Positions 10,473 to 13,400 of a stretch of DNA of 64,000 nucleotides are shown here, piece after piece. Position 1 is the first letter of the stretch. The number at the start of each line of letters is the position of its first letter. The stretch is from Escherichia coli (GTDB lineage Bacteria > Pseudomonadota > Gammaproteobacteria > Enterobacterales > Enterobacteriaceae). The notes under the pieces are model-generated. The model made no database searches and had not been told where the DNA came from. It saw only the letters and a list, made by a program, of their open reading frames with translations. Made by a program: the position numbers and the translations under genes. Where the stretch lies: assembly GCF_045037415.1 (NCBI RefSeq), contig NZ_CP173438.1, one strand, 5' to 3'.

Positions 10473-13400
10473 ATGCAGGTCAGCAGAAGGCAGTTCTTTA
10501 AGATCTGCGCTGGCGGTATGGCAGGCACCACGGCAGCGGCACTGGGTTTTGCACCCAGCGTAGCACTCGCGGAAACCCGGCAGTATAAACTGCTGCGCAC
10601 CCGCGAAACCCGTAATACCTGCACCTATTGTTCCGTAGGCTGTGGGCTGTTGATGTACAGCCTCGGTGACGGAGCAAAAAACGCCAAAGCATCTATCTTC
10701 CATATCGAAGGTGACCCGGATCACCCGGTCAACCGCGGAGCACTTTGTCCGAAAGGCGCTGGCCTGGTGGATTTCATCCACTCCGAAAGCCGTCTGAAGT
10801 TTCCGGAATACCGTGCGCCAGGTTCTGATAAATGGCAGCAAATCAGTTGGGAAGAGGCGTTTGATCGCATCGCCAAACTGATGAAAGAAGACCGCGATGC
10901 AAACTACATTGCGCAAAACGCCGAAGGCGTGACTGTTAACCGCTGGCTCTCCACCGGGATGCTGTGTGCTTCCGCGTCGAGCAACGAAACCGGCTATTTA
11001 ACGCAAAAATTCTCCCGCGCGCTGGGTATGCTCGCGGTCGACAACCAGGCGCGTGTCTGACACGGACCAACGGTAGCAAGTCTTGCTCCAACATTTGGTC
11101 GCGGTGCGATGACCAACCACTGGGTCGACATCAAGAATGCCAACCTCGTCGTGGTGATGGGCGGTAACGCCGCTGAAGCTCACCCGGTCGGGTTCCGCTG
11201 GGCGATGGAAGCCAAAATTCACAACGGCGCGAAGCTGATTGTGATCGATCCTCGCTTTACGCGTACAGCGGCGGTGGCTGACTACTATGCCCCTATCCGT
11301 TCCGGTACTGACATTGCTTTCCTGTCAGGCGTATTGCTGTACCTGCTGAACAATGAAAAATTCAACCGCGAATACACCGAAGCCTATACCAACGCTAGCC
11401 TGATCGTGCGTGAGGATTACGGCTTTGAAGATGGCCTGTTCACCGGCTACGACGCGGAAAAACGCAAGTACGATAAGTCCACCTGGACTTACGAACTGGA
11501 CGAAAACGGCTTCGCCAAACGCGATACTACCCTGCAACATCCACGTTGCGTGTGGAACTTGCTGAAACAGCACGTTTCCCGCTACACGCCAGATGTGGTT
11601 GAAAACATCTGCGGTACGCCAAAAGACGCATTCCTGAAAGTCTGCGAATACATCGCAGAGACCAGTGCTCACGATAAAACTGCCTCGTTCCTTTACGCCC
11701 TCGGCTGGACGCAACACTCCATCGGTGCGCAGAACATCCGTACGATGGCGATGATCCAGTTGCTGCTCGGCAATATGGGGATGGCTGGCGGCGGCGTTAA
11801 CGCCCTGCGCGGTCACTCCAATATTCAGGGGCTGACGGACCTGGGGCTGCTGTCGCAGAGTCTGCCAGGTTACATGACGCTGCCAAGCGAGAAGCAGACC
11901 GATCTGCAAACTTACCTTACCGCCAACACGCCGAAACCACTGCTGGAAGGCCAGGTTAACTACTGGGGCAACTACCCGAAATTCTTCGTCTCTATGATGA
12001 AGGCCTTCTTTGGTGATAAAGCGACGGCGGAAAATAGCTGGGGCTTTGACTGGTTGCCGAAGTGGGATAAAGGCTACGACGTCCTGCAATACTTCGAGAT
12101 GATGAAAGAGGGCAAGGTCAATGGCTATATCTGCCAGGGCTTTAACCCTGTTGCCTCATTCCCGAACAAAAACAAAGTGATCGGCTGTCTGTCGAAGCTG
12201 AAATTCCTCGTGACTATCGACCCGCTGAACACTGAAACCTCTAACTTCTGGCAGAACCACGGTGAACTGAACGAAGTTGACTCGTCGAAGATCCAGACCG
12301 AAGTGTTCCGTCTGCCATCGACCTGCTTCGCGGAAGAGAACGGTTCAATCGTTAACTCTGGTCGCTGGTTGCAGTGGCACTGGAAAGGTGCGGACGCCCC
12401 GGGGATTGCGCTGACTGATGGCGAGATCCTCTCCGGTATCTTCCTGCGCTTGCGCAAGATGTATGCCGAACAGGGTGGCGCGAACCCGGACCAGGTGCTG
12501 AACATGACCTGGAACTACGCCATCCCGCATGAGCCGAAGTCGGAAGAAGTGGCGATGGAGAGCAACGGTAAGGCGCTGGCCGATATTACCGATCCGGCAA
12601 CCGGTGCGGTTATTGTCAAGAAAGGCCAACAACTTAGCTCGTTCGCTCAACTGCGCGATGACGGTACAACCTCCTGTGGCTGCTGGATTTTCGCCGGTAG
12701 CTGGACGCCAGAAGGCAACCAGATGGCGCGTCGTGATAACGCCGATCCGTCTGGCCTCGGTAACACGCTGGGCTGGGCATGGGCATGGCCGCTTAACCGC
12801 CGCATTCTGTATAACCGCGCCTCCGCAGATCCGCAGGGTAACCCGTGGGATCCGAAGCGTCAGTTGCTGAAATGGGACGGCACTAAGTGGACCGGCTGGG
12901 ATATTCCGGACTACAGCGCAGCGCCTCCGGGCAGTGGCGTCGGGCCGTTTATCATGCAGCAGGAAGGCATGGGGCGTCTGTTTGCCCTCGATAAGATGGC
13001 GGAAGGTCCGTTCCCGGAACACTACGAGCCGTTTGAAACGCCGCTGGGAACTAACCCGCTGCATCCAAACGTTATCTCGAATCCGGCGGCGCGTATCTTT
13101 AAAGACGATGCCGAAGCATTGGGGAAAGCCGATAAGTTCCCGTATGTCGGAACCACCTATCGTCTGACCGAGCACTTCCACTACTGGACCAAACACGCGC
13201 TGTTGAACGCGATTTTGCAACCAGAGCAGTTTGTGGAAATCGGGGAGTCGCTGGCGAATAAACTTGGCATTGCCCAGGGCGATACTGTGAAAGTCTCCTC
13301 CAACCGTGGCTATATCAAAGCCAAAGCGGTAGTGACCAAACGTATTCGCACGCTGAAAGCAAACGGCAAAGATATCGATACCATCGGTATTCCGATTCAC

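Follow-up and report, generated by a model that had tools for sequence, protein, structure and literature searches.

Introduction

In the Escherichia coli formate dehydrogenase (FDH) genes fdhF and fdnG, the features on which SelB recognition depends are a bulged U, a G-U in the apical loop, and a spacing of 11 nt. [quoted passage not shown] SelB binds Sec-tRNA(Sec) together with the SECIS that lies directly after the UGA, and in doing so competes with release factor 2 (RF2) (PMC8124441).

Here we analyse a site of this kind in a 64,000-nt stretch of the E. coli chromosome, which we refer to as the window. With a probability that we put at roughly 0.97, the TGA at 11058–11060 is the Sec196 codon of E. 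coli fdoG, accompanied by a SECIS and recoded to selenocysteine in a SelB- and SECIS-dependent manner. The site is textbook knowledge, and biologically there is nothing new in it: it is real but ordinary. What the analysis adds is a comparison of UGA-bearing homologues with homologues that carry cysteine at the same position, and an account of how the gene is stored in sequence databases.

The fdo locus

The TGA lies within the alpha subunit gene of a formate dehydrogenase locus, the products of which were identified with NCBIfam profiles using curated cutoffs:

9446–10279, minus strand: fdhD, a divergent gene for a sulfurtransferase needed in FDH maturation (TIGR00129, 340 bits; RefSeq fdhD)
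10473–13523, plus strand: fdoG, the alpha (catalytic) subunit of FDH-O, 1016 codons including Sec196 (TIGR01553, alignment with 1kqf_A, RefSeq CDS, synteny with b3894)
13536–14438, plus strand: fdoH, the beta (Fe-S) subunit (TIGR01582, 477.7 bits; RefSeq fdoH)
14435–15070, plus strand: fdoI, the cytochrome b556 gamma subunit (NF007924, 453 bits; the FdnI model NF007558 gives 244 bits)
15067–15996, plus strand: fdhE, a formate dehydrogenase accessory protein (NF002925, 602 bits)

The alpha subunit matches TIGR01553 over residues 2–1015 with 1573.2 bits, against a cutoff of 814.2. RefSeq gives the same gene order, with fdhD divergent, a single alpha CDS of 3051 nt, fdoH, fdoI and fdhE, as does the curated K-12 record (b3891–b3895), in which the syntenic alpha gene is fdoG (b3894), the name that the original prediction had assigned to it. 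On the basis of this gene order, the FdoI-type gamma subunit, and an alpha subunit only 76.8% identical to FdnG, the locus is FDH-O (fdoGHI) and not FDH-N (fdnGHI). Several complete E. coli genomes match the stretch 10400–13600 (3.2 kb) at 100% identity, and the 161 nt around the site share 99.4% identity with a K-12 MG1655 genome. Of 5426 complete genomes of the species, 5425 carry fdoG, and almost all of these share at least 95% identity in the region of the site.

The PGAP label of the alpha subunit is "fdnG, formate dehydrogenase-N subunit alpha", although the adjacent genes carry the names fdoH and fdoI and the K-12 gene is fdoG; this inconsistency arises because the TIGR01553 model is common to both paralogues. 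Upstream, at 10304–10502 (plus strand), there is a sub-threshold match to RF02778, the "FdoG-1 5' UTR thermometer" (32 bits, E 5e-5; the gathering score is 50), in which the confident alignment is confined to the 3' part, comprising the ribosome-binding site and the first fdoG codons.

Elsewhere in the window, a yiiG homologue (DUF3829; 8804–9358, minus strand) lies beside a "carbohydrate porin" gene (about 7056–8450, minus strand). In the identical strain AR_0089 this yiiG homologue is annotated as a pseudogene lacking its N-terminus, while K-12 yiiG is intact at 1056 nt. An rrn operon lies entirely on the minus strand (5S at 52570–52685, 23S at 52788–55691, tRNA-Glu at 55885–55960 and 16S at 56046–57587). 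Further Rfam matches above threshold are CsrC (42088–42341), Spot 42 (43370–43488), ES222 (35160–35267) and STnc370 (33202–33270), together with naRNA4/REP copies at 5658–5820 and 39763–39834.

A single reading frame with one internal UGA

Within the alpha subunit gene, three features need to be distinguished, two of which are products of mechanical ORF calling:

11058–11060, plus strand: UGA codon 196, predicted to be recoded to selenocysteine, the active-site Mo ligand (alignment with the Sec of 1kqf_A and of D. vulgaris FdhA)
10473–11060, plus strand: artefactual N-terminal ORF of 195 aa, which results from taking the UGA as a stop (ORF list)
11109–13523, plus strand: artefactual C-terminal ORF of 804 aa, which begins with the next in-frame ATG past the UGA (ORF list)

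The frame opens with the ATG at 10473 and closes with the terminal TAA at 13521–13523. Reading it through confirms the claim of a lone in-frame TGA in the alpha subunit: codon 196 is the sole internal stop, and the 820 codons downstream of it are intact. The accompanying claim, that the ORF track cuts one gene in two, also agrees with what we find, as the 195-aa and 804-aa entries of the mechanical ORF list share one frame. A twin-arginine motif, SRRQFFK, is found near the N-terminus of FdoG.

The original prediction had proposed alignment to FdnG/FdoG selenoproteins as a check on the position of the Sec residue. FdoG aligns end to end with 1kqf_A, the FdnG chain of the crystal structure (1901 bits), and the position encoded by TGA falls on X196, the Sec of that chain; it also coincides with the Sec residue in FdhA selenoproteins of Desulfovibrio and with that of 8cm4_A. 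The predicted peptide across Sec196 is ARV-U-HGPTVASLAPTFGR.

The same alignments bear on the idea that the ORF list is literally correct, with two genes encoding proteins of 195 and 804 aa and a true boundary between 11060 and 11109. Such an arrangement might seem to gain credence from the databases, where both fragments have been deposited as proteins, each on at least 1000 contigs. However, in the solved homologue one chain of 1015 residues runs across the junction; the 16 codons from the TGA to the next ATG (HGPTVASLAPTFGRGA), which would fall between the two genes, encode residues identical to those of FdnG; the two halves are in one frame with a SECIS between them; and the frame is continuous in homologues of the Cys type. 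When a gene boundary or frameshift was looked for in homologues, the position was occupied by TGA or by a Cys codon and never by a boundary, so the Sec reading stands. We give two separate genes a probability close to nil, and reject them because one chain spans the junction in the solved homologue and the Cys-type homologues are continuous.

The SECIS element

Immediately around the UGA, the sequence matches a known bacterial RNA element, the parts of which are as follows:

11055–11113, plus strand: bacterial SECIS, Rfam SECIS_3 (RF01989), model positions 1–59 (84.3 bits)
11072–11089, plus strand: upper hairpin GG-U-AGCAA-GUC-UUGCU-CC, presumed to be the part bound by SelB (pairing in 70 homologues)
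11061–11103, plus strand: lower helix, 11061–11070 with 11095–11103 in the Rfam register (85% paired, register in E. coli ambiguous)

The 59 nt at 11055–11113 read, by codon, GTC TGA CAC GGA CCA ACG GTA GCA AGT CTT GCT CCA ACA, followed by TTT GGT CGC GGT GCG ATG AC. SECIS_3, for which the gathering score is 63, matches them over its full length with 84.3 bits (E 1.8e-19) and places the UGA at model positions 4–6; SECIS_2 (RF01988, the fdhF type) reaches 28 bits on the window. The SECIS-like hairpin of the original prediction is thereby substantiated, including its gcaagtcttgc palindrome, which at 11076–11086 forms an inverted repeat of GCAA and TTGC around GTC. The repeat extends outwards to AGCAA/UUGCU, then across a bulged U at 11074 to a GG/CC pairing of 11072–11073 with 11088–11089, and it encloses an apical GUC loop at 11080–11082. 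The description of the hairpin as following the TGA immediately is apt for the lower helix, which starts at 11061, but not for the apical hairpin, which begins 11 nt past the UGA. Similarly, the end of the element had been set at 11105, whereas the Rfam match runs slightly further, to 11113.

Structure prediction, the second proposed check, gave a divided answer: the covariance model supports the element, but fold stability alone does not. The minimum free energy of –17.4 kcal/mol corresponds to z = –0.77, and 39 of 200 shuffled sequences were equally stable, which is not significant. Stability is uninformative in a GC-rich coding stretch such as this one, and we therefore relied on the covariance model and on comparative data. 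In the Rfam register the lower helix contains two mismatches in E. coli, and the minimum free energy structure from ViennaRNA is shifted by one relative to it.

Covariation among UGA homologues and the Cys-type control

We scanned one genome per species for the pattern A-R-x-[TGA/TGY]-H-G-P-T-V-A, which yielded at least 120 loci, and analysed 124 sites made up of these loci, loci found earlier, and the window. Among the pattern-selected matches listed, the codon at the Sec position is TGA in 117 of 124 and TGT or TGC in the other seven. The exact 59-mer of E. coli recurs in at least 25 loci, including Photorhabdus, Yersinia, Providencia, Citrobacter and Enterobacter.

This distribution weighs on the possibility that fdoG is a pseudogene with a nonsense mutation at codon 196. 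Plain translation does stop at that codon, and naive ORF calling does split the gene, as such a mutation would have it. Nevertheless, all but one of 5426 complete E. coli genomes have the site region, nearly always at 95% identity or more; the TGA is found also in fdnG and, across many phyla, in the large majority of the homologous sites listed above; the codons downstream are undamaged and RefSeq records a single intact CDS; and codon 196 corresponds to the catalytic Sec in solved structures. Conservation of the site, TGA in homologues, the intact frame and the Sec in structures together effectively refute a nonsense mutation, which we regard as exceedingly improbable.

Covariation was counted over the 70 distinct TGA sequences (alignment A1). 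In the upper helix (11072–11079 with 11083–11089), 99.2% of cells are paired. Pair 21–33 is GC in 53 sequences, AU in 12 and GU in five, and pair 24–30 is AU in 45, CG in 21 and GC in four, with none unpaired at either; double-sided (compensatory) changes occur at two of the seven upper pairs, in 37 cells. As a control, sliding the 3' partners by one to three columns lowered overall pairing from 91% to 26–49%. The bulged U and the GU(C/U) loop are each present in 70 of 70. Both the covariance-model match and the covariation are far beyond chance. The lower helix is 85.4% paired in the Rfam register versus 83.6% in the ViennaRNA register, with no double changes, and neither register is clearly better over the 70 homologues.

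The seven homologues with a Cys codon provide the complementary control. In these genes three to five of the seven upper pairs form, and the G-U loop is retained in one of seven. Thr200 is encoded by ACG in 70 of 70 UGA genes and in none of the seven Cys genes (Fisher p = 4e-10). In the Cys homologue on plasmid pN96-1, the synonymous sites past the Cys codon are the same in 6 of 16 cases versus 42% gene-wide, that is, they are unconstrained. This homologue still scores 44.7 bits on SECIS_3, below threshold, and part of the SECIS_3 score therefore reflects conserved coding sequence. Pairing and synonymous constraint at the SECIS are thus specific to the UGA-bearing homologues and are lost in the Cys type. 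The contrast between Sec and Cys genes is a small, clean demonstration of the synonymous-site footprint that an RNA structure leaves within a coding region.

The survey also turned up some loci in unusual settings. On the E. coli plasmid pN96-1 (locus L004, 5449–10045), an fdnG-fdxH-fdnI operon with Cys (TGT) at the Sec position is flanked by IS elements, and 25 matches in the distant search were on plasmids. A contig from an uncultured Enterobacterales MAG carries two Sec-type sites, at 2241–2269 and 8155–8183, on the same strand and 5.9 kb apart, which suggests two neighbouring FDH alpha genes.

Sequence identity with the paralogue fdnG

Window fdoG and K-12 fdnG (b1474) are 74.8% identical in nucleotides and 76.8% in amino acids, with the TGA at the same codon number. 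Their longest identical run is 71 nt, at 11055–11125, and the next longest is 36 nt. Within the 71-nt run the two genes agree at all 18 informative synonymous codons, versus 58% gene-wide; the chance of such synonymous identity is about 0.04 after correction for window number. The run takes in the whole SECIS, the 59-mer of fdoG being identical to that of K-12 fdnG.

It is conceivable, although we consider it unlikely, that the 71-nt identity and the shared 59-mer reflect more than SelB binding, for example that the two paralogues have undergone recurrent gene conversion or that a further constraint acts on them. Such a constraint might be a specific geometry of the lower helix, or the SECIS might also serve in regulation. 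This reading draws on the facts that clear covariation is confined to the upper hairpin, and that in enterics the lower helix may pair in a register other than that of the Rfam consensus.

Recoding machinery and proposed mechanism

The window contains no tRNA-Sec and no sel genes; the sole tRNA in its 64,000 nt is the tRNA-Glu of the rrn operon. However, among 5426 complete E. coli genomes all but one have selB, together with selA; the count of 5425 equals that of fdoG, and from this near-universality we infer that the genome to which the window belongs has both genes.

Following established knowledge, a ribosome arriving at UGA196 would encounter SelB, carrying Sec-tRNA(Sec), bound to the SECIS hairpin just downstream in the mRNA. 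The features of the hairpin that would matter are the upper stem, the bulged U, the apical loop with its G-U, and the placement 11 nt from the UGA. SelB would deliver selenocysteine in competition with RF2, and the outcome would be one polypeptide of 1016 residues, exported by the Tat pathway, in which Sec196 would ligate the Mo of the bis-MGD cofactor. Insertion of Sec and binding of SelB are established in the literature for E. coli FDH genes (PMC8124441); for the fdoG of the window they are predicted from its sequence.

That SelB and RF2 compete at the Sec codons of bacteria is established (PMC8124441), and this would also be the starting point for viewing the UGA chiefly as a site of regulated termination: when selenium is limiting, RF2 would win, the codon would act as a selenium-dependent on/off switch, and a truncated product would result. 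Termination of this kind is, however, a side outcome of the same recoding mechanism and not an alternative identity for the codon, and we find it very improbable that it is the main role of the UGA. Recoding to Sec196 remains the reading that we prefer.

Annotation of the gene in databases

The original prediction had expected automated annotation to report a pseudogene or two genes here. This is only half right, as it applies to gene callers that do not model Sec but not to PGAP: RefSeq/PGAP and the curated K-12 record keep one CDS of 3051 nt, neither split nor marked as a pseudogene. The exact 195-aa and 804-aa fragments, explained by callers of the former kind, have nonetheless been deposited separately. 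Each occurs on at least 1000 contigs, and their clusters comprise 3382 and 6687 members, respectively. Some of the 195-aa fragments (in Cronobacter malonaticus and Hafnia alvei) are misnamed "sulfate ABC transporter substrate-binding protein".

The practical value of the site therefore lies in annotation quality, as the two halves of one gene are being stored as if they were distinct proteins, each half on 1000 contigs or more. Scanning for pairs of ORFs in the same frame that are parted by a TGA and a SECIS match can repair such split records.

Comparison with known systems

The closest known system is fdoG of K-12 (b3894), which is the same gene in the same locus order, with strain-level polymorphism as the sole difference. 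The paralogue fdnG differs from fdoG in belonging to a separate locus, fdnGHI, which the literature describes as induced by nitrate.

The SECIS at Sec140 of K-12 fdhF (SECIS_2, RF01988) has the same layout as that of fdoG, with the UGA and 11 nt followed by GGUUGCAGGUCUGCACC, as compared with GGUAGCAAGUCUUGCUCC in fdoG. Common to the two is the succession of GG, a bulged U, stem, G-U loop, stem and CC. The fdhF element differs in that it belongs to another Rfam family, scoring 35.8 bits on SECIS_3, and in its host protein, the 715-aa cytoplasmic FDH-H.

The Cys-type alpha subunits resembling FDH-N (pN96-1, L004) are homologous to FdoG, with 68% amino acid identity and the same H-G-P-T-V-A sequence flanking the site. 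They differ from it in having TGT or TGC in place of TGA, in showing no synonymous constraint, and in scoring below threshold on SECIS_3.
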